Source: Clostridia bacterium (GTDB taxonomy: Bacteria > Bacillota > Clostridia > Christensenellales > CAG-138). From it: a DNA stretch of 64,000 nt. A program made the translations under genes and the position numbers. Shown piece by piece: positions 7,138-55,342 of the stretch. The notes under the pieces were generated by a model. The model was not told where the DNA came from. It saw only the letters and a list, made by a program, of their open reading frames with translations, and ran no database searches. The DNA is taken from positions 2,853-66,852 of the forward strand of contig JAFRRO010000066.1 of NCBI GenBank assembly GCA_017428025.1, written 5' to 3'. Each line of letters starts with the position of its first letter. The stretch's first letter is position 1.

Positions 7138-7212
<75 letters not shown>

Positions 7213-21170: not shown

Positions 21171-21188
21171 ACGCCGAAAGGAGAGCAT

Positions 21189-23753: not shown

Positions 23754-23762
23754 TGATTCATG

Positions 23763-23786
23763 AGACCGCCTTCGGGCGGTCTTTTG
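23763..23786 (+). terminator. Rho-independent terminator
   Basis: Stem GACCGCC / GGCGGTC with loop TTCG, followed by TTTT. Confidence 0.8.
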
Positions 23787-23806: not shown

Positions 23807-23860
23807 ATTACAATTTCATTACATTCGCGCCCCCGCATCCTGTGCGAAATATGGTACACT
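23807..23860 (+). promoter_or_regulatory. Response-regulator box ATTACAATTTCATTACA plus -10 (promoter of the two-component operon)
   Basis: Direct TTACA repeats 11 bp apart (23807-23823), 31 nt, then TGgTACACT extended -10 (23852-23860). Confidence 0.6.
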
Positions 23861-23882: not shown

Positions 23883-24545
23883 ATGAAAAACAGGATTTTG
23901 GTGGTGGAGGACGACGCGGCAATCCGCGACGCGGTGCTTCTGAATCTGCAGTTTGCGGGCTACGAGACGCGCGCGTTCGAGGACGGTGCCGATGCAGCAA
24001 ACGCGCTCGAAGACGATCACGCGTTCGATCTTGCGCTCCTTGACATCATGCTGCCGGGCATGGACGGATTCGAGCTGTTTTCCGTGATGGAGCATTATGG
24101 CATTCCGGTGATCTACATGACCGCAAAGACGGATTCGGCGTCCGAGATCAAGGGACTGAGGGACGGCGCGGAGGATTATATCGTCAAGCCGTTCGATCCG
24201 TTGACGCTGATGGTGCGCATCGAAAAGGTCCTGAAGCGCATCGGTAAGTGGAACGCCGTCTTTCGCGTGCGCGACGTCGTGGTCAATATCGAGACGCATA
24301 CGGTCACAAAGGGCGGGGAGCCGGTCGTGCTGCAGCCGCTCGAATTCGACGTGCTGGTGATGCTGCTGCGGCATAAGAACATGACCGTCTCGCGCGAACG
24401 GCTGCTGAACGAGGTGTGGGGATTCGATTATCTCGGCGAGACGCGCATGGTCGACGTCAAAATCTCCGCGCTGCGCAAAAAGCTCGATCTGGAGGACGCG
24501 ATCCGCGCGATCCCGAAGCTCGGCTACCGGTTGGAGGATCGATAG
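23883..24545 (+). CDS. OmpR/PhoB-family response regulator
   Basis: Receiver domain (VVEDD...DLALLDIMLPGMDG...KTD) and a winged-helix output domain (...KLGYRLE). Confidence 0.9.
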   Translation: MKNRILVVEDDAAIRDAVLLNLQFAGYETRAFEDGADAANALEDDHAFDLALLDIMLPGMDGFELFSVMEHYGIPVIYMTAKTDSASEIKGLRDGAEDYIVKPFDPLTLMVRIEKVLKRIGKWNAVFRVRDVVVNIETHTVTKGGEPVVLQPLEFDVLVMLLRHKNMTVSRERLLNEVWGFDYLGETRMVDVKISALRKKLDLEDAIRAIPKLGYRLEDR

Positions 24546-25928
24546 ATGAAGCTGCATCAACGCATCACGCTGCTCGTTTCGATCGTGCTTGCGGCGGTGA
24601 TCCTTGCGGTATCGCTGTCGCTGCTGCTCTATTCGCGTCAGACGATTCTTGCCATGACGACCGAACAGGTCGAGCGCAAGGAACAGACGTTGCGAAAGTC
24701 CTTCAGTGAGATGGCGCGCTATTATGCGAAAGCCGACGACAGCGAAATCGTGCACGCCTCGCTGATCGATTACTGCTTCTCGCGCTTTGCCGACCAGACC
24801 GCCGTGCTGATGCACGACGGCGAACCGGTCTATACCGGCGTTTCGATCGATCCGTCCGCCTATCTCAAAAAGGACGACACATACCAAACGGAATACGACT
24901 CCGTCGCCTGCAAGGTACACGGGAAAAACCTGTTGATCGCGGGCGGCATGACGAGCATCGGCGCAGAGAACTATACCGTCTATATCGTGGAGGACGTCAC
25001 GGACATCCACACCCGCATCCGGCGCATGTCGCTGATCTATGCGGGCGTCAGCATCCTTGCGCTCTGCATCGGCGCGGGCGCGGTCATGCTGCTGGTCAAG
25101 CGCAGCACGAAACCGGTTGCGGCGCTCTCCGAAGCCGCAAAGGAGATCGCCGACGGCGCGTACGAAAAGCGCGTGGACGTGCAGACCGGAGACGAGATCG
25201 GCGCGCTCGGGCAGGACTTCAACCGCATGGCGGATGCGGTCGAAACAAAGATTTCGGAGCTCGAGGAACGCAACGAGCGGCAGCGCCTGTTCATCGGAGG
25301 CGTCACGCACGAGTTCAAAACCCCGATGACCGGTCTTCTGCTGCATACCGGGCTGTTGCGGCGCGCAAATCTCACCGAGGACGAGCGCGACGCGTCGCTT
25401 GCTCACATCGAAATGCAGACGGCGTGGCTCGAACGGCTGACGCAGAACCTTCTGAAGCTCTTTACCTCCGACGAGGCGATCGAACGCAGCGAAGTCGATC
25501 TGCCCGCGCTGTTTGAAACGGTCAGAGAGGGCGTCGAACCGAAGCTCATCGAGCGCGGCGCGTCGCTTTCGATCGCGTGCGAAACGCAGACGCTTCTCTG
25601 CAATCCCGATCTGATCCGTTCGCTTCTCACCAATCTCATCGTCAACGCCGCAAACGCCTACGACGCGAACGCGCCGGAAAAGCCGATCGCGCTGACCGTC
25701 CGCGGACAAACGATCTCGGTTGCCGATCATGGCAGAGGCATCCCGAAGGAGGCGCAAAGCCGCATCTTCGAGCCGTTCTATCGCGTGGACAAGAGCCGCA
25801 GCAAAAAGCAGGGCGGCAGCGGGCTCGGGCTTGCGCTCGTCAAGGCGATCGCCGATGCGCACGGCGCGACTATCACGGTCGAAAGCGAGCCGGACGTCGG
25901 CACAACGGTTTCGGTGACCTTTCCGTGA
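24546..25928 (+). CDS. Sensor histidine kinase (2 TM, extracytoplasmic domain, HAMP, HisKA, HATPase_c)
   Basis: H-box GGVTHEFKTPMT, N-box NLIVNAANAY, G1 DHGRGI and G2 GGSGLGLA. The start abuts the response regulator stop. Confidence 0.9.
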   Translation: MKLHQRITLLVSIVLAAVILAVSLSLLLYSRQTILAMTTEQVERKEQTLRKSFSEMARYYAKADDSEIVHASLIDYCFSRFADQTAVLMHDGEPVYTGVSIDPSAYLKKDDTYQTEYDSVACKVHGKNLLIAGGMTSIGAENYTVYIVEDVTDIHTRIRRMSLIYAGVSILALCIGAGAVMLLVKRSTKPVAALSEAAKEIADGAYEKRVDVQTGDEIGALGQDFNRMADAVETKISELEERNERQRLFIGGVTHEFKTPMTGLLLHTGLLRRANLTEDERDASLAHIEMQTAWLERLTQNLLKLFTSDEAIERSEVDLPALFETVREGVEPKLIERGASLSIACETQTLLCNPDLIRSLLTNLIVNAANAYDANAPEKPIALTVRGQTISVADHGRGIPKEAQSRIFEPFYRVDKSRSKKQGGSGLGLALVKAIADAHGATITVESEPDVGTTVSVTFP

Positions 25929-25938
25929 TTTCCCGGCG

Positions 25939-26058
25939 CCCCTGTGTAAGGGGAGCTGTCGAGGGTACCGAGACTGAGGGGTTGTAAATCATACAATATT
26001 GTCAAAAACAACCCTTCCGTCTCGCTTCGCGATCCACCTTCCCTTGCACAGGGAAGGC
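25939..26058. repeat. About 120-bp imperfect palindromic element (REP/MITE-like)
   Basis: Arms CCCCTGTGTAAGGGGAGCTG...GAGACTGAGGGGTTGT and ACAACCCTTCCGTCTC...CCTTCCCTTGCACAGGGAAGG match at about 34 of 47 positions (by eye). They flank an AT-rich loop, and each tip forms its own small hairpin. Confidence 0.65.
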
Positions 26059-26081: not shown

Positions 26082-26135
26082 ATTACAATTTCATTACAGT
26101 TTGGTGCGGATTTTTGCACGTTCGCGCGGTATGCT
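26082..26135 (+). promoter_or_regulatory. Identical response-regulator box ATTACAATTTCATTACA plus -10 (promoter of the lipoprotein array)
   Basis: 17 of 17 identity with 23807-23823, 31 nt, then TATGCT (26130-26135). Confidence 0.6.
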
Positions 26136-26163: not shown

Positions 26164-27600
26164 ATGAAAAAGCATGTGATCGTGATCATTCTTGCCGCGC
26201 TTCTGCTTTGCGCCTGCGTACCGACGCCGGACGAGGAGCCGGTGCTGCCGAAGAATCAGGACCTGATGATCCAAAAGGGCGAAGCGACGCAGGCGCCGGA
26301 ACAGCCCTATACCCCGCCGGAGGCGCCGGAACGGTTTGTTTATGACTTTGCGGACGGCACATGGACGGTTCACGCCGATGCGCCGATTATCGTTCCGGAC
26401 GTCCCGATGCCGATGGTTTGGGTGCGCTCGCAGGGCATTTCGCAGGAGATGCTGTATCGATTGTTCAAACTGTTGGGAAACGGTGAAACCTTTTATCAGG
26501 CAAACTATGAATATGTCAGCACCAAGTCGGAAATTGCAGAGAGAATCCAGCGCATGATGAATCGACTTGAGGATGGAAGCTACAAGGATTCCGACCTTTC
26601 CGAGGAGGAATGGAAAGCGGCCATCGAGGAATTGAAAAAGCAGTATCAGACGGCGCCGAAGGAAGTCAATCGCGAACCGCAGGAAAGCGACGGTACGTAT
26701 CAGCTAATGAAAGGCGGCGAGTCCGGAACCGAGTGCTTATATCTGGAAGCAAGGAATGAACAGCGCTCAATTTCTGCTGTCGCAGCATTCAAAGCGGACG
26801 AAGGCGGCTCATTGTTCTGCTATGCGCGGCGTTTGGAAACAGATGGCCGCAGCTATGATTACTATTGGACAAACGCAAGAAAGGTGGACGCAGCGAGCGA
26901 ACTGCCGGGCGGGCTGTCTTATGCGGACGCCGTCGTTCAACTGAACGAGGTGCTTGATACGATCGGCGAACCTTTTGAAATCGAAAGCGTATATCTGATC
27001 GATGACGACTCAAACGGAATGGTTGACGGAGATTCCTCATCGGCAGAGCATTATGCGCTGTGCTTTGCCTGCCGTCGCCTTGTCAACGGTGCGCCGACGG
27101 TCTGCGATGTACCCGGCACAAGCAATACGAATGCGCTTTTTTCGATTCCGTGGGAACAGGAGAGCTTACGTGTCATCATCGATTCGATGGGGATTGCAAA
27201 CATCGGATGGATTGAACCGTTGACGCTTCTTGATACGGTTTCCGAATCGACAAATCTTTTGCCGTTCTCCGAAATCCAGAATATTGCGGAAAAGATGCTG
27301 CCGATTATGTACGGGCAAAAGACGGGACATGATTTTATTCAATCACTCGATACGCAGATCACAAGCGTTCGGTTGGAACTGATTCGTGTGCGTGAACAGA
27401 ACAATACCAAGCAGTTGAAAGGCATCCTGATTCCTGTATGGACTTTTTACGGGACGAGCGTTGTAACAGACAAGGAAGGATATTCCTCCTATTCCGACTA
27501 TGGCATGGGCGGCGGCAACGACAACTACGAAGGCGATCAAATCCTTCTCTGCATCAACGCCATCGACGGAACGATCATCGATCCGCTGCTCGGCTATTGA
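26164..27600 (+). CDS. ACVPTP-family lipoprotein, paralogue A (uncharacterised family)
   Basis: Signal peptide MKKHVIVIILAALLLCAC-VPTPDEEP with a lipobox Cys. Conserved LLPFSEIQNIAEKMLPI, ITSVRLELIRV, GILIPVW and C-terminal INAIDGTIIDPLLGY. RBS AAAGGAGG is present. Confidence 0.8.
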   Translation: MKKHVIVIILAALLLCACVPTPDEEPVLPKNQDLMIQKGEATQAPEQPYTPPEAPERFVYDFADGTWTVHADAPIIVPDVPMPMVWVRSQGISQEMLYRLFKLLGNGETFYQANYEYVSTKSEIAERIQRMMNRLEDGSYKDSDLSEEEWKAAIEELKKQYQTAPKEVNREPQESDGTYQLMKGGESGTECLYLEARNEQRSISAVAAFKADEGGSLFCYARRLETDGRSYDYYWTNARKVDAASELPGGLSYADAVVQLNEVLDTIGEPFEIESVYLIDDDSNGMVDGDSSSAEHYALCFACRRLVNGAPTVCDVPGTSNTNALFSIPWEQESLRVIIDSMGIANIGWIEPLTLLDTVSESTNLLPFSEIQNIAEKMLPIMYGQKTGHDFIQSLDTQITSVRLELIRVREQNNTKQLKGILIPVWTFYGTSVVTDKEGYSSYSDYGMGGGNDNYEGDQILLCINAIDGTIIDPLLGY

Positions 27601-27615
27601 AGGGAGGACACACAT

Positions 27616-29052
27616 ATGAAAAAACACATTTTCATCATTCTGCTTGCAGCGTTGCTTCTGCTTTGCGCCTGCGTACCGACGCCGGACGAGGAGCCGGTGC
27701 TGCCGAAGAATCAGGACCTGATGATCCAAAAGGGCGAAGCGACGCAGGCGCCGGAACAGCCCTACACGCCGCCCGAAGTGCCGGAACGGTTCGTTTATGA
27801 TTTTGCGGACGACAACTGGACGCTGCACGCCGACGCGCAAATCGTCGTGCCAGACGTGCCGCTGCCGATGGTCTGGGTACGCTCGCAGGGAATCTCGCAG
27901 GAGCTTCTCTATCGCCTGTTCGAGTATTTCGGCAACGGCGAGTCCTATCAGATTCCGGACATGAATCCGATCCAAACCAAGGCGGAGATCGAGGAGCTGA
28001 TTCAGCACATGGTCGATCAGCTCGAGGACGGCAGCTACAAGGAGTCCGACCTCACCGAGGAGGAATGGAACGCCGCCATTGAGGAATTGAAAAAGAAGTA
28101 CCGCGCCGCGCCGGAGGAGGCGCCCGAAAAGGATCTGAACACCGACGGCACGTATATTCTTCTGAAAAGCAACATGTACGATACGGAACGACTGTATCTG
28201 GAGGCATACAACTATCAGCGTACGATCGGCGCGACATCCTATTTCAAAGCCGACGGTTCCGGCTCAAACTTCCACTATTACCGGCATTTTTACAACGAAT
28301 CGCGCAGGGATTTCACGATGGCAAACGCCGTTCCGGTCAACGCTGCGAGTGAGCTGCCCGAAGAGCTCTCCTATGCGGATGCAGCCGCGAAGATCAAGGA
28401 GGTGTTCGATCTCATCGGCGAGCCGTTCGAGATCGCAAGCGTGTATCTGATCGACGACGCCGCAAACGGTTCGGTCGACGGCGAAGTTCGCAAGGCTGAG
28501 CATTACGCGCTGTGCTTTATCTGCCGCCGCACGGTCAACGGCGCGCCGACGGTCACAAATATTACGGGCTCTATGCGCATGGACGATCTTTTTGTAATCC
28601 CTTGGGAGCAGGAGAGCTTCCGCGCGATTCTCGACAGCGAGGGCTTCGTTTCGCTCCGTTGGGAGGAACCGCTGACGATGCTCGACACCGTTTCCGAATC
28701 GACCAATCTGCTGCCGTTTTCGGAGATTCAAAACATTGCGGAAAAGATGCTGCCGATCCTGTACGGAAAGAATAACGGGCATGACAGCCTCCGGTCGGTC
28801 GATACGCAGATAACGAGCGTGCGGCTCGAGCTGATCCGCGTGCGCGAGCAGAACAACGCAAAACAATTGAAGGGCATTCTGATTCCGGTATGGGCGTTCT
28901 ACGGCACCTGCCATGCGGTCGAGGACGACGACTATTCCCTGTATCTCCATTACGGTTTTGGCGGTGGCAGCGACGGCTACAAGGGCGACGAGATTTTGCT
29001 CTGCGTCAACGCGATCGACGGCACGATCATCGATCCGCTGCTCGGCTATTGA
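27616..29052 (+). CDS. ACVPTP-family lipoprotein, paralogue B
   Basis: MKKHIFIILLAALLLLCAC-VPTPDEEP, with the same C-terminal motifs. Lies 15 nt after A, with RBS AGGGAGG. Confidence 0.8.
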   Translation: MKKHIFIILLAALLLLCACVPTPDEEPVLPKNQDLMIQKGEATQAPEQPYTPPEVPERFVYDFADDNWTLHADAQIVVPDVPLPMVWVRSQGISQELLYRLFEYFGNGESYQIPDMNPIQTKAEIEELIQHMVDQLEDGSYKESDLTEEEWNAAIEELKKKYRAAPEEAPEKDLNTDGTYILLKSNMYDTERLYLEAYNYQRTIGATSYFKADGSGSNFHYYRHFYNESRRDFTMANAVPVNAASELPEELSYADAAAKIKEVFDLIGEPFEIASVYLIDDAANGSVDGEVRKAEHYALCFICRRTVNGAPTVTNITGSMRMDDLFVIPWEQESFRAILDSEGFVSLRWEEPLTMLDTVSESTNLLPFSEIQNIAEKMLPILYGKNNGHDSLRSVDTQITSVRLELIRVREQNNAKQLKGILIPVWAFYGTCHAVEDDDYSLYLHYGFGGGSDGYKGDEILLCVNAIDGTIIDPLLGY

Positions 29053-29067
29053 AGGGAGGACAGGCAT

Positions 29068-30630
29068 ATGAAAAAACACGGTTTCATCCTTTTGCTTACA
29101 GCGTTGCTGCTGATCTGCGCCTGCGTACCGACGCCGGAGAAAGAGATCGTGGTGCAGAAGGACTTCGACCACATGATCGAAAAGGCGAAGGAAACACCGG
29201 TTTCGGATACCGTTGTGCTTGAGGACGGTACGCAGGGATCCGGCGTACCGACGGCGTCGCCGCAGAACACGGACGCTCCGCGCTATGCGCATATCACCGA
29301 ATCGTTCACCGGGCGGACGGACGCATTTCGGGTGGAGATCGACGCCGACGTGATCGTGCCGGACGGACCGCTGCCGATCGTTCGCGTCAAACCCGATGAA
29401 TTCAACGCGGAGAAAGCGCAGCCGTACTTTGACGCCCTGTGCAGCGGCGAAGACTATTACCCGCGCGAGGAGTTGGAGACCAAGGAGAATCTCGAACGGC
29501 AGATTGCCGAGATGCAGGCGGAGGTGGACGCGGGACTGCCCTCGATGGATCGCGACGGACTGTCCGAAAAGGACGTGCAAAAGGAAATCAAGAATTGGAA
29601 GTCGCAGATCAAAGAGCTTCAGGAGCGCTGGAAGGTCGCAAAGGACAAGCCGGAAAACCCGATGCGCGTTCTTGCAGACTACGATTGGAGCAAGGTGCCG
29701 TCCTACTATCCGCTGGGCGTCTGGACGACCGACGAACAGGCGCAGTTTACGTTCCGACTGGACGGCGAGCAGGAGCAGAACGGGCACAAGATCCGGTTCG
29801 TCCAAAGCTCCGTCCTGTTCGAGGATGCGCGCAAGGAGCCAAAGACCAAGGCGCGGCATCAATTTGAGTATTACAGGGATGTAACCGGACAAACGACGAT
29901 CCCGACCGGAACGAAGCTTACAAAAACGCCGCTTGAGGCACAGACCGAAGCCGAACAGCTGATCCAAAGGATCGGTGCAAAGGATATGGCGGTCGATCGC
30001 GTGTACCTGATGCGCGAATGCGTGCTGAACGAAGGAAACGAGGGCTATTGCATCAATTACCTGCTGCCGGAGGATTACGAGTATCAGTATCTCTATGAGG
30101 TTCGCTTCTGCCGTACGGTCAACGGCATCCCGGTGGTGAAGCCGACTTTCTTTGCGTCATCCTCTAACAACAGCGAGAACGGCGCCTATGCGCCGAGCTG
30201 GGAGTATGAGGAGCTGTATGTGCGCGTCAGCAGTGACGGCGTTTGCGAACTGTATCATCTGGCGCCGATCGAGACGGTCACTACGCTGGTGGAGGACGCG
30301 AAGCTGCTGCCGTTCTCCGATATTCTGGATATCGCGAAAAAGATGCTGCCGATTTTGCACGAGGACCAGATCGGCAGCGGCAATCGCGTTGAGTTTCGCA
30401 TCGATCGCATCACGCTTTCCTTGCAACGCATTGCGGAGCAGGACAACCTCGAATACGGTCTGCTGGTGCCGACGTGGAACTTCTGGGGCGTGGACCTTCG
30501 TATCGGCGAGGACGGCGTGCCGCACACGTACCTTTGCGGCGTCTTCAGCGCCGGAACCTGCGGCTATCTGCCCTTGCTTTCGATCAACGCGATCGACGGC
30601 ACCATCATCGATGCAACAAAGGGGTACTGA
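29068..30630 (+). CDS. ACVPTP-family lipoprotein, paralogue C
   Basis: MKKHGFILLLTALLLICAC-VPTPEKEIVVQKD, then LLPFSDILDIAKKMLPI and C-terminal INAIDGTIIDATKGY. Lies 15 nt after B. Confidence 0.8.
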   Translation: MKKHGFILLLTALLLICACVPTPEKEIVVQKDFDHMIEKAKETPVSDTVVLEDGTQGSGVPTASPQNTDAPRYAHITESFTGRTDAFRVEIDADVIVPDGPLPIVRVKPDEFNAEKAQPYFDALCSGEDYYPREELETKENLERQIAEMQAEVDAGLPSMDRDGLSEKDVQKEIKNWKSQIKELQERWKVAKDKPENPMRVLADYDWSKVPSYYPLGVWTTDEQAQFTFRLDGEQEQNGHKIRFVQSSVLFEDARKEPKTKARHQFEYYRDVTGQTTIPTGTKLTKTPLEAQTEAEQLIQRIGAKDMAVDRVYLMRECVLNEGNEGYCINYLLPEDYEYQYLYEVRFCRTVNGIPVVKPTFFASSSNNSENGAYAPSWEYEELYVRVSSDGVCELYHLAPIETVTTLVEDAKLLPFSDILDIAKKMLPILHEDQIGSGNRVEFRIDRITLSLQRIAEQDNLEYGLLVPTWNFWGVDLRIGEDGVPHTYLCGVFSAGTCGYLPLLSINAIDGTIIDATKGY

Positions 30631-30633
30631 GCC

Positions 30634-32052
30634 ATGAAAAAACATATTTTCATCCTTTTGCTTGCATCCCTGCTGCTGCTTGCCGCCTGCGTACCGACGC
30701 CGGAGGAACCGATCGTGATCGGAAAGGACCAGAGCGCCATGATCGAAAAGGCGGAGGCGGGCGGAGAATATGCCGCGTCGCCGAGCGATCCGGCAGCCGG
30801 CACGGACTGGGCAGCGCGGCTCGGCACGCCCGCGCGATACGAAACGTCGCTCGTGAGCGCGGGCGGCAAGCTGACCGTCGAGGTGAACGCGCCGATCGAA
30901 CTGCCCGACGTCGAACTGCCGGTCGTGAAGATCGAGCCGTATCTGTTCACCGACGCGGATGTGCGCCGCTATGTATCGGCGCTTCTGGGCGACGATCCGC
31001 AGTGTGTCGACGATGCGTGGGACGAATCCCTGCGCACCAAGAAATCGTATGAAAAGGAAATCCTGACCTGCAGGGATGCTTTGGAACACTGGAACGAATA
31101 CGGCAGTATCGTCTATGACAATTACGAAACGCGCGGGGCGTTTGAACAGCACCTGCAGGACCTGATGCAAAAGGCGGCGAACGCGCCGGAAAAACCGGAG
31201 ACGCATGCGCCGACCTACGAGTGGCAGAAATGGAACGTCTGGACGGAGGCGGGAAAGCAGGAGACGGAGGACAGCTATCTGACACTGCTCACGGTCAACG
31301 AGGACCTTTCGCAGTCGAGACTGGATATCAGCCGCAGTTCGGAGTTCGGGCGCTGCGACGTGCGCTACAATCGCGACGCATACGAAAACCTCCCGCTGGC
31401 GGTCGATTCGCGGACATGGCAAAACGAGCTTTCGATCGGCGAGCGGGACGCCCGTCATACGGCCGAGACCGTCCTGAACCAAATGGGACTCGATCATCTG
31501 GTTTGCGTCCTTGCAAAGCCGACGCGCATCTATCCGGGCGACGTCGCGCGGGACGGCAATTCCTATCATGCCTGCTGGGTGCTCGTCTTTATGCCCGCGG
31601 TCAACGGCGCGGCGGCGACCTATACCGAACAGACGCGCACCGAGCCGAGCGATTACGCCCGCGAATGGGAAACCGAATACTGCGCGGTGTGGGTGGACGA
31701 ACAAGGCGTTGCGGGGCTGAACTACCGGAATCCCTGCGCGATTCGCGAGGTCACAGTGCCCGTGGCGACGCTGCTGCCGTTCGACAAGATCAAAGAGATT
31801 TTCGAGAAGATGGTGCTGATCGTGGACAACAATGCGGATCCCGGCGGCTATGAACTGCATTATCGCATCACATCGATTCGCCTGGGATTGGTCAGCATCC
31901 CGGAACAGTATGGTACGGGCGGGCTTCTGGTGCCCGCGTGGGATTTCATGGGCGTGCTCGAATCGGCGGATTCTCAAAAATACGCGACCGACGAAGCCCG
32001 CTCGTTCCTGACGATCAATGCCGTCGACGGCAGCATCATTGTGCGCGGATGA
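30634..32052 (+). CDS. ACVPTP-family lipoprotein, paralogue D
   Basis: MKKHIFILLLASLLLLAAC-VPTPEEPIVIGKDQ, C-terminal INAVDGSIIVRG. Lies 3 nt after C. Confidence 0.8.
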   Translation: MKKHIFILLLASLLLLAACVPTPEEPIVIGKDQSAMIEKAEAGGEYAASPSDPAAGTDWAARLGTPARYETSLVSAGGKLTVEVNAPIELPDVELPVVKIEPYLFTDADVRRYVSALLGDDPQCVDDAWDESLRTKKSYEKEILTCRDALEHWNEYGSIVYDNYETRGAFEQHLQDLMQKAANAPEKPETHAPTYEWQKWNVWTEAGKQETEDSYLTLLTVNEDLSQSRLDISRSSEFGRCDVRYNRDAYENLPLAVDSRTWQNELSIGERDARHTAETVLNQMGLDHLVCVLAKPTRIYPGDVARDGNSYHACWVLVFMPAVNGAAATYTEQTRTEPSDYAREWETEYCAVWVDEQGVAGLNYRNPCAIREVTVPVATLLPFDKIKEIFEKMVLIVDNNADPGGYELHYRITSIRLGLVSIPEQYGTGGLLVPAWDFMGVLESADSQKYATDEARSFLTINAVDGSIIVRG

Positions 32053-32070
32053 CGGAGAAAGGACAATACC

Positions 32071-33504
32071 GTGAAAAAACAGACTGGTTTGATATTGCTG
32101 CTTGCGGCGTTTCTGCTGCTTTGCGCCTGTGTGCCGACGCCGAAGGAACCCGTCGTGATCGGCAAGGATCAGAGCGCAATGGTCGAAAAGGCGCAGGAAA
32201 AGCCCGTCTATGCGCAAACGGAAGGAACGGTCGACTGGCTCGAACGGCTCGGCGCGCCCGCACGGTACACGGCGACGCTGACGAGCATCGGCGGGCGGCT
32301 GAAGGTGGAAGCGGACGCGAAGGTGATCGTGCCGGACGGCGAGCTGCCGATCGTGTATGTGACACCCCGCAGCTTTTCGGACGAGGACGCAGAGCGGTTT
32401 ATGAAGGCGCTTTTGGGCGACGATCCGAAATGCCTCCGGCCGGAGGACGAGAACCGTACAAAAGCCATGTACGAACGGCAGATTCTCGAATGGAGCTACG
32501 CGCTCGACCATTGGGAGGAGTACGGCGCCTCGGTCTGGGACATGTACGACACAAAGGAGGAGTTCCGCGAAGCGCTGCAAGGGCTGATGGAAAAGGCGGC
32601 AGACGCGCCGGAAACGCTTGAGACGTTCGACCCTGTTTTCGAATGGGAGCCGATCCTTTGGCAGACCGACGCGGGGCAGAGAGCCTACGGAGATGAGAAT
32701 ATGCACTTTCTGACGCTGAACGCGGACGGAACGAAATCGTCCCTGAGCATCACGAATGGCGCGGACGTTGCGCGCAGCGGCGTTCATTACTGGCGGGACA
32801 GCGAAGGTCTTGCGGATCAGCTGGAGGACGTGGACGGCGGACAGTGGCAGAACGAACTGCAGATTTCGGAGGAGGAGGCCCGCGCCGCTGCGGAAGCGAC
32901 GCTCTCCCAAATGGGGCTCGGTCATCTGGTCTGCGCGTTCGGAAAATTCATCCGCTGCTACCGCATGAACACCGTTCGCGAAGACGCTCCGTACCAATCC
33001 GGCTGGATGCTCGTATATACGCCCGCGGTGAACGGCACGGCGCTGACCTATACGCTCCGGACGGGCGTCGACAACAACGACTACAATCGCCGCTGGCAGT
33101 ATGAACGCTGCTATCTGCTCGTCGACGAAAAGGGCGTGGCGCTGTTGCATTATTACGACGCCTGCACCCTGGACAGCGTCATGGTCGAGGCCTGCACGCT
33201 ACTGCCGTTTGAAAAGATCGTCGAGATCTTTGAGAAGATGGTGCTGATCGTCGACAACGACGCGGATCTGTACGACGTCGACCGCACCTACCGGATCACG
33301 ACGGTCCGCCTCGGTATGACGAGCATTCCGGCAGAAAACGGAAACGGCGGCTTTCTGGTGCCGTGCTGGGACTTCATGGGCGACGAGTACGCCGCGGAGG
33401 AATTCCCGGAAACGTGGAAACGTACGGGCATGACGCAGGACGGCAGCTTTTCGTATCTTACGATCAACGCCATTGACGGCAGCATCATTCAGCGCGGGCA
33501 TTGA
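32071..33504 (+). CDS. ACVPTP-family lipoprotein, paralogue E (GTG start)
   Basis: (V)KKQTGLILLLAAFLLLCAC-VPTPKEPVVIGKDQ, C-terminal INAIDGSIIQRGH. RBS GGAGAAAGG is present. Confidence 0.75.
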   Translation: MKKQTGLILLLAAFLLLCACVPTPKEPVVIGKDQSAMVEKAQEKPVYAQTEGTVDWLERLGAPARYTATLTSIGGRLKVEADAKVIVPDGELPIVYVTPRSFSDEDAERFMKALLGDDPKCLRPEDENRTKAMYERQILEWSYALDHWEEYGASVWDMYDTKEEFREALQGLMEKAADAPETLETFDPVFEWEPILWQTDAGQRAYGDENMHFLTLNADGTKSSLSITNGADVARSGVHYWRDSEGLADQLEDVDGGQWQNELQISEEEARAAAEATLSQMGLGHLVCAFGKFIRCYRMNTVREDAPYQSGWMLVYTPAVNGTALTYTLRTGVDNNDYNRRWQYERCYLLVDEKGVALLHYYDACTLDSVMVEACTLLPFEKIVEIFEKMVLIVDNDADLYDVDRTYRITTVRLGMTSIPAENGNGGFLVPCWDFMGDEYAAEEFPETWKRTGMTQDGSFSYLTINAIDGSIIQRGH

Positions 33505-33580
33505 GGAACAGGAAGAAAGGGAAAACCATGCAAAAATACATGAGGAACAGGAAGAAAGGGAAAACCATGCAAAAATACAT
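33503..33580 (+). repeat. Perfect 39-bp tandem duplication covering the RBS and start codon of paralogue F
   Basis: GAGGAACAGGAAGAAAGGGAAAACCATGCAAAAATACAT occurs at 33503-33541 and again at 33542-33580. Confidence 0.9.
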
Positions 33581-35051
33581 ATGGATGATATTGCTGCTTA
33601 CGGCGTTACTGCTGCTTTGCGCCTGCGTACCGACGCCGGAGAATCCGATCGTAGTCGGGAAGGATCAGACGGAAATGCTCAATAAAGCAAAGGAAACGCT
33701 CGCACCGGAAAAACTGGAACAAAGCTTGCGGGAACGGCTGAACGTCCCGGATCGGTATACATATTCTTATCATAAAGGCGACTTGACGATCGACGCGGAT
33801 GCGGAGATCGTGGTGCCGGATGGAGAACTTCCGATCGTCCGCGTGTTTCCGAAGGAGTTCGATCAGGCGACGGTGACAAAGCTTTGGAACGTGCTGATCG
33901 GCGATATGCCGATGCAGATTCAGCAGGAAGGAATGACGAAAGCCGAGATCGCGGAGGAACTCGAAGCGATGCTCGCCGCGCTCGACGCAAACGAGCCGCA
34001 GGCGTTCGGATTTGAAACCATCGAGCAATTGGAGAAGCGGATCACACTGTATCAGAAAAAGTATAACGAGGCGCCGGATGTTTTGGATGGCGAACCGGCG
34101 GACGGTACGCTGTATACGGAATCGGAGTATGACAACAGCGGCAACGTCACAGCATCGCATACTTGCATTCGCGCGCAATCCAAAGAGGCGGGCATCCGTT
34201 TCATTGTGAGCAATGGATATGACAACGATGCACCGGTCAAAACAATCCTGTATGACGATATCGGCAGGGAGATCGGCTATTCCGTTCGCAGCGTCGAGCG
34301 CAAATCGTCCTTCGTGTTCATAAAGGACAACGATCCGCATGTCGGCTGCTATGTGTGGGATGACGAACTGCGGCCTTCGGACGGCATTCCCGAAAAAGCC
34401 GCGCATTCGATCGGCATCCTTCCGCAAAATGCGTGGGATGCGGCGCAAAAACTGTTGGAGGATATGGACCTTTCCGACGCGTACCGACCGCAGCGCATCT
34501 TTTTGATCACAGACGTCGGTCCGGATAATATCCCGCGCGAGTACGCATACCGCATCGTTTGTACGCATGTTGTTAACGGTGTGCAAACGCTGATGATCGG
34601 CAACGTCGGCGACGAGGGGGCGGATGACCCATTTGTGCCGTCGTGGCAGTTTGAGCGGTTTTATATCGACGTCGGCGATGACGGCGTATATTGCATACAG
34701 CATGAAACACCGCTTGCCGTCGGCGACACGGTATTGGCACAGACGAACCTATTGCCTTTTTCGGAGATACAGGCGATCATCAAAAAGATGCTGCCGATCA
34801 TGTACGAGAACGAAACGGACGATTACGACGGAAAGTCATTTGAGAAGCACATCGACCGTGTGGAACTCGGTCTTTGGCGCGTGCGCGAACAGGACCGGAT
34901 CGACCGCGGACTGCTGGTTCCCGTTTGGGCGATTTATGCCATTACCGCGGAAATCGATTCGTACTTCAACTTTGCATGGAGAAGCTATGAACCGATCCTG
35001 CTGATCAACGCGGTCGACGGCAGCGTCATCGATCCACAGCAGGGGTATTGA
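33567..35051 (+). CDS. ACVPTP-family lipoprotein, paralogue F (alternative in-frame start at 33528)
   Basis: MQKYIWMILLLTALLLLCAC-VPTPENPIVVGKDQ, then LLPFSEIQAIIKKMLPI and C-terminal INAVDGSVIDPQQGY. Confidence 0.75.
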   Translation: MQKYIWMILLLTALLLLCACVPTPENPIVVGKDQTEMLNKAKETLAPEKLEQSLRERLNVPDRYTYSYHKGDLTIDADAEIVVPDGELPIVRVFPKEFDQATVTKLWNVLIGDMPMQIQQEGMTKAEIAEELEAMLAALDANEPQAFGFETIEQLEKRITLYQKKYNEAPDVLDGEPADGTLYTESEYDNSGNVTASHTCIRAQSKEAGIRFIVSNGYDNDAPVKTILYDDIGREIGYSVRSVERKSSFVFIKDNDPHVGCYVWDDELRPSDGIPEKAAHSIGILPQNAWDAAQKLLEDMDLSDAYRPQRIFLITDVGPDNIPREYAYRIVCTHVVNGVQTLMIGNVGDEGADDPFVPSWQFERFYIDVGDDGVYCIQHETPLAVGDTVLAQTNLLPFSEIQAIIKKMLPIMYENETDDYDGKSFEKHIDRVELGLWRVREQDRIDRGLLVPVWAIYAITAEIDSYFNFAWRSYEPILLINAVDGSVIDPQQGY

Positions 35052-35071: not shown

Positions 35072-35103
35072 ACGAAACCGGAGGGGAAGCCCTCCGGTTT
35101 TGC
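35072..35103. terminator. Bidirectional terminator between the array and the convergent ABC operon
   Basis: Stem AACCGGAGGG / CCCTCCGGTT with a 4-nt loop, followed by TTT. Confidence 0.8.
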
Positions 35104-49136: not shown

Positions 49137-49190
49137 TTTACGAGTTTCTTACAACTCGGACATATCTGATTCAAAGAAACGTGATACGAT
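49137..49190 (+). promoter_or_regulatory. Response-regulator-box-like TTTACGAGTTTCTTACA plus extended -10
   Basis: TTACG-N6-TTACA (49137-49153), 31 nt, then TGaTACGAT (49182-49190). The geometry matches the boxes at 23807 and 26082. Confidence 0.45.
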
Positions 49191-49223: not shown

Positions 49224-50624
49224 ATGGAAAAACAGAAAAAGAAACAGTACAGGGGCCTGCGCGTCGTCGCGTCGATCCTTGCAAACCTTACGGGCATTCT
49301 GACGGCGAATTACATCGTGTTCTACATCCTCGATCATTTCAACCCGGGGCTGCACTTTGTGATTCATTCGACCTTCTTTCTGACGGAACACCTGCATCTG
49401 ATCATTGCGGGACTGACGCTGATCACGGGGATTCTGTACCTGATCCTGTTCCGACGCGGCGCGTTCAGACGGTATCGCTTCCAAAAGAAACGCCTGATCG
49501 GAATTCTGGTCGCCGACGTGCTGCTGGCGGGCGCGTTTGCCATGACGGTCAACACCTATACGTTCGACTGGCTGCACATCCGCGAGATCAAACAGGATCA
49601 GATCGTTGCGCTGGCGACGCTGCCGCCGAAGGAGGCGCAGACGCCGGACACGAACGAAGATACCGTCGTCATGCCGGAAACGCCGCAGCCGACGGCACAC
49701 GCCCAAACGCAGGCGGCGGACGATACGGCGCCCGCGCCGACCGATACGCCGGAACCGACGCAGGAACCCACGCCGACGCCGATCCCGGGACTGTTGGGCG
49801 ATCGGTTCAAGGAGAAGTTCTCCGACGGCGCGCCGGTCGTTGAGGAGCCGAACACGAGCGAAACGCTGCCGGACGGCACGGTGAAAACGCTGATCTACGT
49901 CTATCGCGGGACCAAGTCCGCGGTCGAGCTCTATCATTATCAAAAGGGCAAGCTCGAATACCAGATCGCCGACGTCTATGTGCGTGAGATTGAAAAGCTC
50001 ACGACCGAGAGCGTCACCAATCAGGGCTATGCCAAGATGCTCTACGAGTTCGCGCGCGAGCTCAACGCACGCATCGCGATCAATTCGGACTACTTCACGA
50101 CCAACGCGATCAACGAAGGTCTGATCATTCGCAACGGAAAGCTGCTGCAATCCAAGGTATGCAAGAATTCGGACCTCTGCGTGGTCTATCAGGACGGCAT
50201 GGTGCGCTGCTTCGACTGCAAGAAGGAGAAGATCGACAACGACGCGATCATCGCCTCCTATCCGTATCATGCGTTCTATTTCGGACCGTCGCTGCTCGAC
50301 GAGAACGGCAACGCCAAGGAGAAGTTCAACTCCACCGTCGGCGCGCTGAATCCGCGTACCGCGTTCGGCTACTATGAGCCGGGACACTATGCGTTTATCA
50401 GCATCCTCGGCACGCGCTCCATGAAGGACATCAACGGGCACGGGCTCGGCAACGGGAAGTCGCCGGGCATGACGTTCACGGAGATGTCGGCGCTGTGCGC
50501 ATCTATGGGCATGAAAGCCGCGTACAACCTCGACGGCGGGCAATCCTCCGGCATGTACTGGAACGAAAAGCTGTTCGGGCACAACAACCGCATCACGGGC
50601 GACGTGCTCGCGATCATCGACTGA
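49224..50624 (+). CDS. Membrane-anchored phosphodiester glycosidase (NAGPA/DUF2233) family protein
   Basis: 3-4 N-terminal TM segments, a T/P/E-rich linker, and a C-terminal domain with IAINSDYF...PRTAFGY...AYNLDGGQSS. Confidence 0.75.
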   Translation: MEKQKKKQYRGLRVVASILANLTGILTANYIVFYILDHFNPGLHFVIHSTFFLTEHLHLIIAGLTLITGILYLILFRRGAFRRYRFQKKRLIGILVADVLLAGAFAMTVNTYTFDWLHIREIKQDQIVALATLPPKEAQTPDTNEDTVVMPETPQPTAHAQTQAADDTAPAPTDTPEPTQEPTPTPIPGLLGDRFKEKFSDGAPVVEEPNTSETLPDGTVKTLIYVYRGTKSAVELYHYQKGKLEYQIADVYVREIEKLTTESVTNQGYAKMLYEFARELNARIAINSDYFTTNAINEGLIIRNGKLLQSKVCKNSDLCVVYQDGMVRCFDCKKEKIDNDAIIASYPYHAFYFGPSLLDENGNAKEKFNSTVGALNPRTAFGYYEPGHYAFISILGTRSMKDINGHGLGNGKSPGMTFTEMSALCASMGMKAAYNLDGGQSSGMYWNEKLFGHNNRITGDVLAIID

Positions 50625-50636
50625 GGAGGGGAGAGC

Positions 50637-50849
50637 ATGAAAAAGCATCTGTTTGCAAAGACCGTCGCCGTTCTGGGCGTGATCGTATCCGCGCTGTATC
50701 TGCTGCTGCTGTTGACGTCGCGGTTCATGGAACTGCCGTTTGAGGTATCGCAGAACGTTCTGTTCGCCGACTGGGCGTTTATCGCCGTGCCGATCCTCGG
50801 CTTCGCTTCGTCGATCGCCCTGCAGATCGCCTCGGTCAGAAATCGCTGA
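50637..50849 (+). CDS. Small hypothetical membrane protein (2 TM)
   Basis: 70-aa ORF starting 13 nt after the preceding stop, with RBS GGAGGGGAG. Confidence 0.5.
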   Translation: MKKHLFAKTVAVLGVIVSALYLLLLLTSRFMELPFEVSQNVLFADWAFIAVPILGFASSIALQIASVRNR

Positions 50850-50898: not shown

Positions 50899-52305
50899 AT
50901 GAAAAAAACAATCGCTGTCATTCTGCTTTGCTGCCTCACGGTATCGATGGCCTGCGTTCCCACGCCGGACCATGAGATTGTCGTCTATCAAGGCGATCAA
51001 GCGCTCGAGGATATGATCAACGCAACCGCAGAGGCGGTTGCGCCGGATTCGGAAGCTGCGCCGGACAAGACCTCTGCCTCGGAGGAGGTTATGCATACGC
51101 CTGCTTCGTATCAGGCGCCGGAAAGGATTCAGGAAAGCTATCCGCTTGGCATCGGCGATGCGCAGGTGATCTTTGACGCGCCGGTTTCCGTGCCGTTTTC
51201 CGATCGCTATCAGGTCTATGAGGTCAGCAAAGCAAAGCCGACGGTCACACAGGCCGTTCAAATCATCCGCGCGTTCTTTGGGAACGGCCCCGTTTATTCG
51301 GGGCAGTATTCCATGACGAAAGCGGAGTATGCCGAATTGCTGAAATACTGCGACGAAAGCCCGGAAATTCAGGAAGAAAACCGGAATATGCAGGCAAGCG
51401 GATTCGAGTACACCGTGCAGTATTTTATCAAGGATGAAATGGATACGGCGCCTTTATCGCGGGAGGATACGGCGTTGGACCTCGATCAATCCGCGTTTCC
51501 GATCCGGGCATACGGAAAACGAACAGGCGACAATACGTTTTATCAGATTCAGGGCGACGATCGCGACGACTATTGCGTGATTTCGATTACGCCGGAAAAC
51601 ATGTATCTGGCAAACGAAAGACTGGTTTACAGCGGGATCTATCCCGGTGCGCCTTCCGGCAGGAAGCTGAACAAACTGTCCGTCACACGCGAGGAAGCCG
51701 TTGCCGCCGCCGATGCATTTCTTTCGGAAGCCGGGATCGATTGGATGGCGGTATCCGATACGGAAAGCCTGCCCGCCGAGTACAGCCACCGGCTGATCGA
51801 CGTTCCGATCAGTCAGGGATGGAAGCTCGTTTATCACCATACATATAACGGCGTTACCGGCGTGAATCAACAGTACAGCGGAACCCTTGCGGAAGACCAA
51901 TACCGATCACCGTGGCCGCAGGAAACGATCTGGATGTATGTGGACGCAGAGGGCGTCAGATACTTCGAATGGTGCGGGATGTCCGAGGTGGAAGAGGTGA
52001 AAGAGAACGAACTGGTCATCATGCCGTTCGAGGAAATTCTGCAAATCATCAAAAACAGGCTGAAGATTGAAAATGCATATGCCGAGGTCGACAAAACAAG
52101 GGAAATACGCGTCACAAGCATTGAACTCGGCTACTGTGTGATTCCCAAAAAGAATGACGGCATGCGGGGCTATACCGTACCTGCATGGATCATCAGCTAT
52201 GAAGAAAACAGTCTGCTGGGAGACGCTCCGCATACTTCCTACCGCGATTTCGTGATCGATGCGGTAACGGGCGCCAATATTCAAACTGCCGCAGCAAGCC
52301 AATGA
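50899..52305 (+). CDS. ACVPTP-family lipoprotein, divergent paralogue G
   Basis: MKKTIAVILLCCLTVSMAC-VPTPDHEIVVYQGDQ, then MPFEEILQIIKNRL, VTSIELGY and C-terminal VIDAVTGANI. Confidence 0.7.
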   Translation: MKKTIAVILLCCLTVSMACVPTPDHEIVVYQGDQALEDMINATAEAVAPDSEAAPDKTSASEEVMHTPASYQAPERIQESYPLGIGDAQVIFDAPVSVPFSDRYQVYEVSKAKPTVTQAVQIIRAFFGNGPVYSGQYSMTKAEYAELLKYCDESPEIQEENRNMQASGFEYTVQYFIKDEMDTAPLSREDTALDLDQSAFPIRAYGKRTGDNTFYQIQGDDRDDYCVISITPENMYLANERLVYSGIYPGAPSGRKLNKLSVTREEAVAAADAFLSEAGIDWMAVSDTESLPAEYSHRLIDVPISQGWKLVYHHTYNGVTGVNQQYSGTLAEDQYRSPWPQETIWMYVDAEGVRYFEWCGMSEVEEVKENELVIMPFEEILQIIKNRLKIENAYAEVDKTREIRVTSIELGYCVIPKKNDGMRGYTVPAWIISYEENSLLGDAPHTSYRDFVIDAVTGANIQTAAASQ

Positions 52306-52396: not shown

Positions 52397-53752
52397 TTAC
52401 AGCGCGTGCTGAAAGCTGCCGTCGAGCGCGTTGATCAGCAGGATCGAATCGTGCTTCAGCGCCGTTTTGTAACGGCTGTTTTGGTATACGACCACCCAGA
52501 CCGGCGCGAGCACGGCTTCATCCGGATTGTTCGGCAGACGCGAGATCGAGCAGGAGAGGATGATCTTTTTGACATGGATTTCGAAAGCCGCGCCGCCCTC
52601 GTCCGTCCATGCATAGCAGTGCTTCATCGTGTCGCGGATGTGCTTCTGCGCTTCATCAAACGGCATCAAAACCACGTTCTCGTTCGCTTCCTTGACATAT
52701 TCGTTCGGATCGTACCATTCGATCGATTCGATCCCGTTTTCGGTCACATACGCCATGATCCAGTCCATCGACCATTTCTGACTGAAATCCGCCTCCGTGA
52801 GCGAACGGTGCATCGCGCTTGCCGAGTCCTCGTTGAAGTACCCGCCGCCCTGCGGATAGGGCACGTAGCCGCCGCCGCTGCGCGCAAGGTGCAGCAGATA
52901 CCCTTCGGAGAGCTCCTTATAATACGGCGCCTCGACGGTCGCGCGCACCATGCGTGCTTTTTCGGTGTAACCGACGCCGAACTGATCGGCAAGCCCCGCT
53001 TTCGAAAGGAACCGGTCGGCGGTTTCGCACGCCGTTTTCTCTGAAATCGTCACCTGATCGAGCGTCCTGTGCCACGGCTCGCCCACAAATCCGCCCTGAT
53101 ACACGGTCGCTTCGTTCTGCACATCAACGTTTCGCGCCGTGCGGATGTGCAGCGCGTTCTTCGTATACCTGAGATATAAAAGCCTGCCGTCCGCGGCGCG
53201 CAGGACCGTCGGCTCGTTGTCGTACGTCAGACGGCTCGGTTCGAGCGGCACAAACGTATCTTCGGCGGGGCATTGCGCCATTTTCTCCTTCAATTCCGCG
53301 AGTTCTTCCGGCTCCTCGGTGAACGGTTCCCAGATGACTTCGCCGGTCTCGTCGTCCCAGTCGACGAGATTGCCGCGCAGAAGAAGCCGGATATCCTCCT
53401 CGATCTCCGGCATGCCGTACCGGTTTTCGCGCAGTTCAAACGGTCCCGTGAAGCATGCGTTGAGGAGAGCGAACACATCCTCCGGCGTGAATTCGTGCCG
53501 CCGGACGGTCTGCACCGGATAGACGTTCCCTTCGGGCAGGATCACGTCCGCGTCGAATTTGATCTTGAGATTCTTCATGGAAACCGTCTCCTCCCAGTGC
53601 GCGGGCGCTTCGTAGCGGACGGTCTCCGCTTTCGGCGCGGCGATCGCCTGCACCATCGATCCGTCGGACTTGTTCACAATGACCTCCTCGCTCGGCGTCG
53701 GCACGCAAGCAAGCAGCAGGAGAATCAGCAGCAGGGAAATCAACCGTTTCAT
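52397..53752 (-). CDS. ACVPTP-family lipoprotein, divergent paralogue H
   Basis: MKRLISLLLILLLLAC-VPTPSEEVIVNKSDG, then LMPFDEAQKHIRDTM and C-terminal LINALDGSF. A strong RBS AAAGGAGGTG lies inside the end of the upstream gene. Confidence 0.7.
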   Translation of the reverse strand: MKRLISLLLILLLLACVPTPSEEVIVNKSDGSMVQAIAAPKAETVRYEAPAHWEETVSMKNLKIKFDADVILPEGNVYPVQTVRRHEFTPEDVFALLNACFTGPFELRENRYGMPEIEEDIRLLLRGNLVDWDDETGEVIWEPFTEEPEELAELKEKMAQCPAEDTFVPLEPSRLTYDNEPTVLRAADGRLLYLRYTKNALHIRTARNVDVQNEATVYQGGFVGEPWHRTLDQVTISEKTACETADRFLSKAGLADQFGVGYTEKARMVRATVEAPYYKELSEGYLLHLARSGGGYVPYPQGGGYFNEDSASAMHRSLTEADFSQKWSMDWIMAYVTENGIESIEWYDPNEYVKEANENVVLMPFDEAQKHIRDTMKHCYAWTDEGGAAFEIHVKKIILSCSISRLPNNPDEAVLAPVWVVVYQNSRYKTALKHDSILLINALDGSFQHAL

Positions 53753-55287: not shown

Positions 55288-55342
55288 ATTGTACCGCCGG
55301 ACTTGTAACAGAGTCATCACAGAGTTGTAAGAGAGTTGTAAA
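55288..55342 (-). promoter_or_regulatory. Response-regulator-box-like TTTACAACTCTCTTACA plus -10 TACAAT (minus strand)
   Basis: On the minus strand: TTACA-N6-TTACA (plus-strand coordinates 55326-55342), 32 nt, then TACAAT (55288-55293). RBS GGAGG precedes the ATG at 55259. Confidence 0.5.

Follow-up and report, generated by a model that had tools for sequence, protein, structure and literature searches.

The proteins YycH and YycI, auxiliary to the WalRK (YycFG) two-component system of Bacillota, are extracytoplasmic, membrane-anchored and encoded directly downstream of an OmpR-type response regulator and its histidine kinase. They occur in one copy each and are anchored by an N-terminal transmembrane helix, through which they act (PMC7355866). 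Their fold class is known for the binding or inhibition of partner proteins and for the regulation of kinases (PMC4282423, PMC7355866), and PepSY proteins are known to act as inhibitors and to regulate two-component systems (PMC4282423). Here we analyzed a locus in a 64,000-nucleotide stretch of DNA from a Clostridia bacterium (contig JAFRRO010000066.1; hereafter the window), in which an OmpR-type regulator gene, a histidine kinase gene and an array of six tandem, paralogous lipoprotein genes (A to F) follow each other on the forward strand. The lipoproteins belong to the Pfam family DUF6034 (PF19499). We propose that the locus is a dedicated three-part envelope module: the regulator, a kinase whose sensor domain is specific to its family, and DUF6034 lipoproteins in varying number. 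We read it as a two-component system whose extracytoplasmic partner or target is PepSY/YycI-like.

The arrangement is that of YycH and YycI, and YycI is the best characterized structural match of DUF6034, its last two strands being aligned in a profile of the DUF6034 C-terminal half. The differences are several. DUF6034 proteins carry a lipobox where YycH and YycI have a transmembrane helix. They are about 470 residues long, with two extra N-terminal regions, against the roughly 250 extracellular residues of YycI, and they occur in 1-12 tandem copies. WalK has an extracellular domain and cytoplasmic PAS domains, whereas the kinase of the array has no PAS domain and falls far below the cutoff of the WalK model. 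Finally, unlike YycI, the DUF6034 array has its own promoter, marked by a sequence box that is described below.

The regulator (23883..24545, plus strand, 220 residues) is of the OmpR/PhoB class, with the Pfam domains Response_reg (E 8e-24) and Trans_reg_C (E 2e-20). The kinase (24546..25928, plus strand, 460 residues) carries the Pfam domains HAMP, HisKA and HATPase. Hydropathy predicts two transmembrane helices, at about residues 7-29 and 163-185, which enclose a 135-residue extracytoplasmic sensor domain and are followed by the HAMP/HisKA/HATPase part. Both proteins scored below all NCBIfam equivalog cutoffs: the kinase reached 179.5 bits with the WalK model (cutoff 725), and the regulator, whose best matches were MtrA, PhoB and CseB, reached 143.7 bits with the YycF model (cutoff 340). 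The sensor domain (residues 29-165, window positions 24630-25040) had no match in Pfam. It is conserved in at least 35 DUF6034-linked kinases, with the motifs SFSEMAxYY, YCFxRFAD and VYVVEDIT, and its mean column identity of 58% is above the conservation of DUF6034.

To assess how tightly this kinase is coupled to DUF6034, we looked from both sides. The 75 loci found via DUF6034 hold arrays of 1 to 12 copies, and a regulator-kinase pair lies immediately upstream in 36 of the 67 arrays with enough upstream sequence. In some loci (L046, L068 and L026) the whole regulator-kinase-DUF6034 unit is repeated, and independent gene calls with precomputed Pfam annotations recovered the order regulator (220 residues), kinase (460 residues) and eight to nine DUF6034 genes. 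To avoid ascertainment bias, metagenome contigs were also scanned with the kinase sensor domain alone. DUF6034 was found directly downstream of 48 of the 49 kinases with at least 1.2 kb of downstream sequence, so the module is near-obligate from the kinase's side. A regulator preceded 61 of 63 such kinases. The sensor domain thus occurs almost exclusively beside DUF6034.

The regulator-kinase pair and the array are preceded by the same sequence. The window has exactly two copies of the 17-mer ATTACAATTTCATTACA, where 0.02 would be expected: box 1 (23807..23823, plus strand) lies in the regulator-kinase promoter, 60 nt before the regulator ATG, and box 2 (26082..26098, plus strand) lies in the array promoter, 66 nt before the ATG of A. 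The core of the box, TTACA-N6-TTACA, is a direct repeat with an 11-bp period. Direct repeats about one helical turn apart are the classic layout of OmpR-family sites. Both boxes have the same 31-nt spacing to a TAnnnT -10 hexamer (TACACT at 23855-23860 and TATGCT at 26130-26135). Two further boxes lie farther along the window. A one-mismatch box (TTACGAGTTTCTTACA, 49138..49153, plus strand) precedes an operon with a glycosidase gene and the DUF6034 gene G, 31 nt from TACGAT (49185-49190). Box 3 (TTACAACTCTCTTACA, 55326..55341, minus strand) is a third exact copy of the core, sits within about 3.5 repeats of 11 bp and precedes an operon of lipoprotein genes X and H, 32 nt from TACAAT (55293-55288). 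All four boxes therefore end 31-32 nt upstream of a TAnnnT hexamer, and no -35 consensus intervenes.

The same box and geometry recur well beyond the window. Related loci totaling 2.49 Mb contain 87 exact boxes, of which 71 lie shortly before open reading frames (ORFs) for DUF6034 (45) or the regulator (26); most of the remaining ones also precede such ORFs once the true start codons are used. The 16-mer of box 3, for instance, also precedes DUF6034 genes in L005, L013 and L055. Boxes were found at 25 of 44 regulator promoters and at none of 46 kinase starts; they were found at 18 of 41 first DUF6034 genes after a kinase (26 of 41 when one mismatch is allowed) and at 12 of 192 internal DUF6034 copies. 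Among the loci found with the sensor domain, 43 of 48 have a box between the kinase and DUF6034. A TAnnnT hexamer follows at exactly 31 or 32 nt in 67 of 88 distinct boxes, and at 31-33 nt in 53 of the 67 boxes of a second, independently selected set. In all, the box is conserved over about 150 loci.

Terminators complete this picture. An intrinsic terminator with a 9-bp GC-rich stem and a T run (23762..23783, plus strand) terminates the preceding molybdo-enzyme gene and insulates the promoter of the regulator. Another, read from the sequence, follows F (CCGGAGGG-gaag-CCCTCCGG-TTTT, 35078..35101, plus strand) and is common to a convergent ATP-binding cassette (ABC) transporter operon. Between the kinase gene and the array promoter lies a hairpin with a short T run (CCTTCCCT-tgcac-AGGGAAGG, 26037..26057, plus strand), likewise read from the sequence; because the terminator scan did not call it, we regard it only tentatively as a possible terminator or attenuator. 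Boxes and terminators therefore suggest two likely units, regulator-kinase and A-F, each under the same box. The regulator is predicted to bind this box, and it likely controls the two remote DUF6034 operons in trans.

A second kinase type is shorter, with about 375-390 residues and an outer loop (about 110 residues) unlike that of the first; together with a regulator it is found downstream of some DUF6034 arrays (L030 13423-15320, L049 13146-14959, L051 1981-3758 and L071 11699-13560). A TTACA-N6-TTACA box precedes its regulator too. These short kinases were considered as candidates for the intramembrane-sensing type; their loops still have about 110 residues.

The six array genes are A (26164..27600, 478 residues, PF19499 E 1.5e-74, lipobox Cys18), B (27616..29052, 478 residues, E 1e-68), C (29068..30630, 520 residues, E 1.8e-64), D (30634..32052, 472 residues, E 3.7e-57), E (32071..33504, 477 residues, GTG start, E 5.5e-68) and F (33567..35051, 494 residues, alternative in-frame ATG at 33528, E 1.6e-74), all on the plus strand and separated by 15, 15, 3, 18 and 62 nt. 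Two paralogs lie outside the array: G (50899..52305, plus strand, E 4.6e-34) and H (52397..53752, minus strand, E 5.7e-36), whose start overlaps the stop of the gene for lipoprotein X. An earlier reading of this DNA, made from the sequence alone (hereafter the sequence-only reading), had described six co-directional genes of 472-520 codons with gaps of 3-62 nt, and two outlying paralogs that bring the total to eight copies, about 11.5 kb and 18% of the 64-kb window. The ORF list and the coordinates agree with it on each of these points. It mentions neither the box that the regulator gene, the array and both outlying operons have in common nor the near-obligate coupling of the kinase family to DUF6034. 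A perfect 39-nt tandem duplication at 33502-33579 (two copies of TGAGGAACAGGAAGAAAGGGAAAACCATGCAAAAATACA) doubles the ribosome-binding site and ATG of F, so F has two in-frame starts, at 33528 and 33567, the first of which would extend the signal peptide by MQKYMRNRKKGKT.

All eight proteins match PF19499, with 118-252 bits (E 1e-34 to 1e-74) against a gathering score of 27 bits, and six of them cover the profile end to end (positions 1-476/481); membership calls for a match above that score, typically over the full length, in a protein of about 450-530 residues. On these profile scores the matches are not attributable to chance. The same model matched 100 of 100 aligned relatives. A search with F returned 95 relatives from Clostridia metagenome-assembled genomes, all of them unnamed or called "hypothetical protein". 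In a profile search of 1.84 billion cluster representatives, the family comprised 6,100 clusters (50% identity) at E <= 1e-3 and 2,829 at E <= 1e-30. A scan of one genome per species gave at least 521 relatives, nearly all from Christensenellales, Christensenellaceae or unclassified Clostridia of rumen and gut. A long subclass of about 840-880 residues has an extra N-terminal region of about 345 residues; its ORFs of 2.4-2.6 kb were found in L024, L025, L026, L037, L042, L052, L060 and L062, and also in P0147, P0180, P0204 and P0237.

The sequence family is thus already catalogued, as a DUF only. No NCBIfam model matched the DUF6034 proteins of the window, PADLOC assigned the locus to no defense system, and Rfam found no RNA element within it (its sole match was a tRNA-Asn at 7138-7212). 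Our literature search retrieved no publication that mentions DUF6034 or PF19499, and nothing relevant on Christensenellaceae lipoproteins with two-component systems. The sequence-only reading, which could not assign the family to a characterized function, was right in this respect: the proteins have a DUF model and neither an NCBIfam model, a name nor a paper.

Lipid anchoring, which that reading had deduced from the signal peptides, is predicted for all copies. We used a rule of the PROSITE PS51257 type ([LVI][ASTVI][GAS]C, Cys at 15-35, basic n-region), so the assignment of signal peptidase II sites is rule-based; eight of eight window proteins passed, with Cys at 16-20 and one or two Lys or Arg among the first seven residues. 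In each of the eight, the mature N-terminus starts with C-VPTP. In related loci, 222 of 268 family ORFs also have a lipobox, with the conserved sequence C-[QV]-[PAK]-T-P. Beyond the signal peptide the paralogs diverge strongly. A and B are 69% identical, and the remaining pairs 21-32%. For A and B the synonymous divergence (dS) is about 1.1 and the ratio of nonsynonymous to synonymous divergence (dN/dS) about 0.2, rising to 0.67 at its highest, in the central part, so they are old duplicates under purifying selection. The best conserved parts are the signal peptide with the post-Cys linker, the surroundings of VPDxxLPIVRV and the final 100 residues, which include the motifs LLPFSEI, GLLVPVW and INAVDGSxIDPxxGY; the least conserved part, rich in indels, is residues 181-280 of F. 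The motifs quoted in the sequence-only reading hold overall, with small deviations in E (ITTVRL, GFLVPCW) and F (IDRVEL).

An AlphaFold2 model of F, built from a 100-sequence alignment, reached a predicted local distance difference test score (pLDDT) of 94.5 and a predicted template-modeling score of 0.89. It shows, in order, a signal helix, a flexible linker, a small beta/alpha module, an acidic helical hairpin, a seven-stranded sheet that corresponds to the variable region, and two helix-plus-sheet modules. When the model was compared with the PDB using Foldseek, the significant matches were 5coz (E 6e-12, target-normalized template-modeling score (TM-score) 0.57) and Bacillus subtilis YycI (2o3o, E 1e-4, probability 1.0), with no others in that search. 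The C-terminal half, when modeled separately (pLDDT 89.5), matched YycI (E 4.6e-3, probability 1.0, TM-score near 0.4) and the FTP-PepSY propeptide of vibriolysin MCP-02 (3nqz_A, E 6e-3, probability 1.0, TM-score 0.39). The sequence profile of this half agrees: at E <= 10 it retrieved exactly two of 177,635 PDB sequences, 5coz (0.007) and YycI (0.13), and it aligns the GLLVPVW...INAVDGSvID strands with the C-terminus of YycI. PDB sequence searches with the full-length profile or with G alone gave noise or no match. G has sub-cutoff Pfam matches to YycI (PF09648, 20.2 bits against a gathering score of 29.7, E 4.9e-4) and to PepSY (PF03413, 17.7 bits against 24, E 4.7e-3). On these models and profiles, we consider the C-terminal modules to be remotely related to the PepSY/YycI class, and the proteins to be members of neither Pfam family. 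The resemblance to PepSY, suggested in the sequence-only reading from the C-terminal ending and the module before it, and to the YycH/YycI folds, which that reading had named for testing, is therefore supported, as a distant relation, by Foldseek and, for YycI, by the profile.

Two of these matches deserve comment. The M4 protease FTP-PepSY propeptides, of which 3nqz A ranks second among the fold matches of the C-terminal half, also consist of two tandem helix-plus-sheet modules, and the xNAxDGxxI ending of DUF6034 resembles the PepSY C-terminal motif; unlike these propeptides, DUF6034 carries no peptidase of its own and has no peptidase gene in its vicinity. The protein in 5coz (EUBREC_2869 of Eubacterium rectale, uncharacterized) is the best structural match of the full-length F model and the best profile match of its C-terminal half, and is shorter than DUF6034, with 358 residues. 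A literature search on EUBREC_2869/5COZ found no paper, and no adjacent two-component system was seen in the one, fragmented assembly that gave its genomic context. In an E. rectale-like contig (SCPP01000023.1, locus L078) the 5coz gene is split into fragments, and ABC ATPases with paired 270-residue membrane proteins (DUF2705) lie nearby, a layout that bears a loose resemblance to the transporter genes of some DUF6034 arrays.

The array differs between closely related strains. Metagenome contigs that are 95-98% identical to the window at the DNA level carry different arrays, with 5 or 4 copies in place of 6: in L079 and L081 the kinase is followed by B, C, D and E, and in L080 by C, D, E and a different last gene (F'). 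A is thus absent from all three, and B from L080. The breakpoints between these variants fall within the conserved 5' ends of the genes. In L002 only F is shared, at 95% identity and flanked by unrelated neighbors. From the strain differences and from L002 we conclude that the array is a repertoire of cassettes that changes by recombination. It is not an invariant feature, in line with the sequence-only reading.

Two other views were considered. A fixed "partner" copy beside the kinase is ruled out by the strains that miss A, or A and B; the kinase-adjacent copy shows best-hit positional conservation in 21 of 41 cases against a background of 15%, which ordinary synteny explains. As to phase variation, the surroundings of the array showed no recombinase or invertible element, though no search was aimed at inverted repeats and simple-sequence tracts, and the repeats within the locus are paralogous coding segments.

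How might such a module work? In the mechanism that we propose, an envelope or extracellular cue would lead the phosphorylated regulator to bind TTACA-N6-TTACA and to turn on both its own operon and the six array genes beside it; acting in trans, it would also turn on the other two DUF6034 operons of the window, so that the lipoproteins would be the direct transcriptional output of the two-component system. Their products would be lipid-anchored on the outer face of the membrane. Each has a conserved N-terminal part, made of the post-Cys linker and a beta module, then a hypervariable sheet in the center and two conserved PepSY/YycI-type modules. The variable center would give each paralog its own target, and the conserved C-terminal module would dock on a partner shared by all, for which the conserved kinase sensor domain is the most plausible candidate. 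The array would thereby neutralize or sequester the inducing agent and feed back on the kinase. Because the ends are conserved, the center is variable and the copies turn over like cassettes, our preferred reading is one of inducible binding lipoproteins: they would act on the cue that induces them, and feedback on the kinase would follow either from this action or directly from the conserved tail. We hold this to be somewhat better than an even bet.

Several observations weigh against this interpretation. Of 35 arrays without an adjacent kinase, nine have a box and most have none, and about a third of the regulator promoters and of the first DUF6034 genes after a kinase are boxless even when one mismatch is allowed. 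What connects the box to the regulator is its position, together with OmpR-family precedent, so the connection is a putative one. The TM-scores to YycI and to the propeptide are modest (0.38-0.44), and Pfam matches to YycI or PepSY occur in one of 100 family members, below the cutoffs. YycH and YycI act on WalK via transmembrane helices, which DUF6034 lacks, and the extracellular domains of B. subtilis YycH/YycI are reported to be dispensable for signaling (PMC7355866). No protease, lysin or bacteriocin gene adjoins the array in the window.

The main alternative, which we consider rather unlikely, is that the lipoproteins are purely accessories of the kinase, that is co-sensors or regulators like YycH/YycI, LpqB or CseA, with no effector role; extra copies would widen the range of cues. 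It draws on the fold and profile relation to YycI, whose sole known role is the regulation of a kinase, on the 48 of 49 kinases followed by DUF6034 and on the repetition of whole modules in L046, L068 and L026. A sensor domain more conserved than DUF6034 is also what one may expect if it docks a conserved module. In layout, LpqB beside MtrAB and CseA beside CseBC are likewise lipoproteins encoded next to OmpR-type systems, and MtrA and CseB are among the best sub-threshold matches of the window regulator; LpqB and CseA, however, show no detected homology to DUF6034, are single copy and come from a different phylum (they are actinobacterial). Pure accessories are harder to reconcile with arrays of up to 12 copies, many of which are still boxed where no kinase adjoins, and with a kinase-adjacent copy that is interchangeable between strains (A, B or C). 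The array also has its own boxed promoter, like a target operon, and its proteins have a lipid anchor in place of the transmembrane helix used by YycH and YycI (PMC7355866).

A more specific form of the inducible-binding interpretation, which we regard as speculative and unlikely as it stands, is that the arrays are inducible, strain-variable panels of surface decoys or inhibitors against the diverse bacteriocins, lantibiotic-like peptides, lysins or proteases found in dense communities of gut and rumen. Each hypervariable center would bind an agent of its own, and the YycI-like tail would signal to the kinase that the center is occupied. Recombination in the conserved 5' ends would add and remove cassettes, and in some genomes a co-regulated LanFEG-like exporter would act alongside the repertoire. 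A polytopic membrane protein of 586 residues, or two half-size genes, forms part of the arrays in about 15 of 77 related loci. This protein has no family match and has its own box in some loci, and an ABC ATPase lies alongside in about 11 of the roughly 15. Such genes were noted in L076 (15030-16790 and 19781-20419), L077 (16116-17876), L011, L013, L015, L017, L025, L058 and L075. The one ATPase tested, from L076, had as its best NCBIfam match the "lantibiotic protection ABC transporter ATP-binding subunit" (E 1e-53, below cutoff). By analogy, the polytopic protein and its ATPase hint at a logic of envelope defense; the window itself has no polytopic membrane protein or LanFEG-like transporter of that type. 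Lantibiotic immunity modules (LanI with LanFEG and LanRK) offer an analogy of layout, in which an OmpR-type system drives lipoprotein genes from direct-repeat promoters. DUF6034 has no sequence or fold similarity to NisI or SpaI by hidden Markov model (HMM) or Foldseek searches, and LanI genes are single copy.

We judge it improbable that the proteins are a surface coat, adhesins or antigenically variable lipoproteins, for which the two-component system would merely time expression and the PepSY-like modules would be scaffolds. Tandem lipoprotein paralogs with a hypervariable center and strain-level gain and loss, in a very large host-associated family (6,100 clusters, gut and rumen genomes), would suit such a role. 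The sequence-only reading had drawn a parallel to the Staphylococcus aureus lpl locus (DUF576), which also has tandem paralogous lipoproteins, conserved signal peptides and strain-variable copy number. The parallel stands as one of layout; it does not extend to sequence or fold, as the DUF576 HMM had no match at E <= 0.1 in the window proteins and no fold relation was found. The lpl cluster is not known to be coupled to a dedicated two-component system, and near-obligate coupling to one dedicated sensor family would be unusual for adhesins. Pfam revealed no adhesin-type repeats or known binding domains. All copies are apparently co-transcribed from one promoter, rather than singly expressed, and the lack of a visible recombinase or invertible element near the array, subject to the limits of that inspection given above, also speaks against antigenic switching. 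An ABC-importer substrate-binding protein can be dismissed, as the proteins have no periplasmic-binding-protein fold or Pfam match and the adjacent ABC genes are convergent, on the other strand.

The two outlying operons add other genes to the putative regulon. The operon behind the one-mismatch box begins with a phosphodiester glycosidase of the NAGPA type (49224..50624, plus strand), followed by a membrane protein of 70 residues (50637..50849, plus strand) and G, and the three are apparently co-transcribed. The operon that G shares with the glycosidase would link the regulon to cell-wall glycopolymer chemistry. The other begins with lipoprotein X (53754..55259, minus strand, 501 residues), which has a lipobox-like N-terminus (MKKPFLILPLLIAALAC). 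X had no match in Pfam, NCBIfam or PADLOC and no homolog among the fetched loci. Because it is the first gene of a boxed operon with H, it probably belongs to the same regulon as DUF6034.

Both flanks look ordinary. Upstream (18195-23753, plus strand) lie a pyridine-nucleotide-disulfide oxidoreductase with a 4Fe-4S domain and a molybdo-enzyme of the xanthine-dehydrogenase family. The other flank (45841-49130, plus strand) encodes a weak DUF58-like protein and a transglutaminase-like membrane protein.

As far as the literature shows, the coupling of this kinase family to DUF6034, the box with its promoter geometry, the relation to YycI and PepSY and the strain-level variation are new. A large family, which is almost confined to Christensenellales-like Clostridia of rumen and human gut, can take up close to a fifth of a 64-kb region and had no assigned function, name or literature, now has a structural link to PepSY inhibitors and to the one class of extracytoplasmic proteins known to regulate kinases. 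DUF6034 thereby becomes a testable system, with a defined sensor family whose extracellular domain had not been described, a regulator box of fixed promoter geometry and a defined output, and the box permits regulons to be predicted directly from metagenomes. Should the lipoproteins indeed capture external agents or adjust kinase activity, they would give these health-associated, hard-to-culture bacteria a main means of sensing and resisting their neighbors or host.

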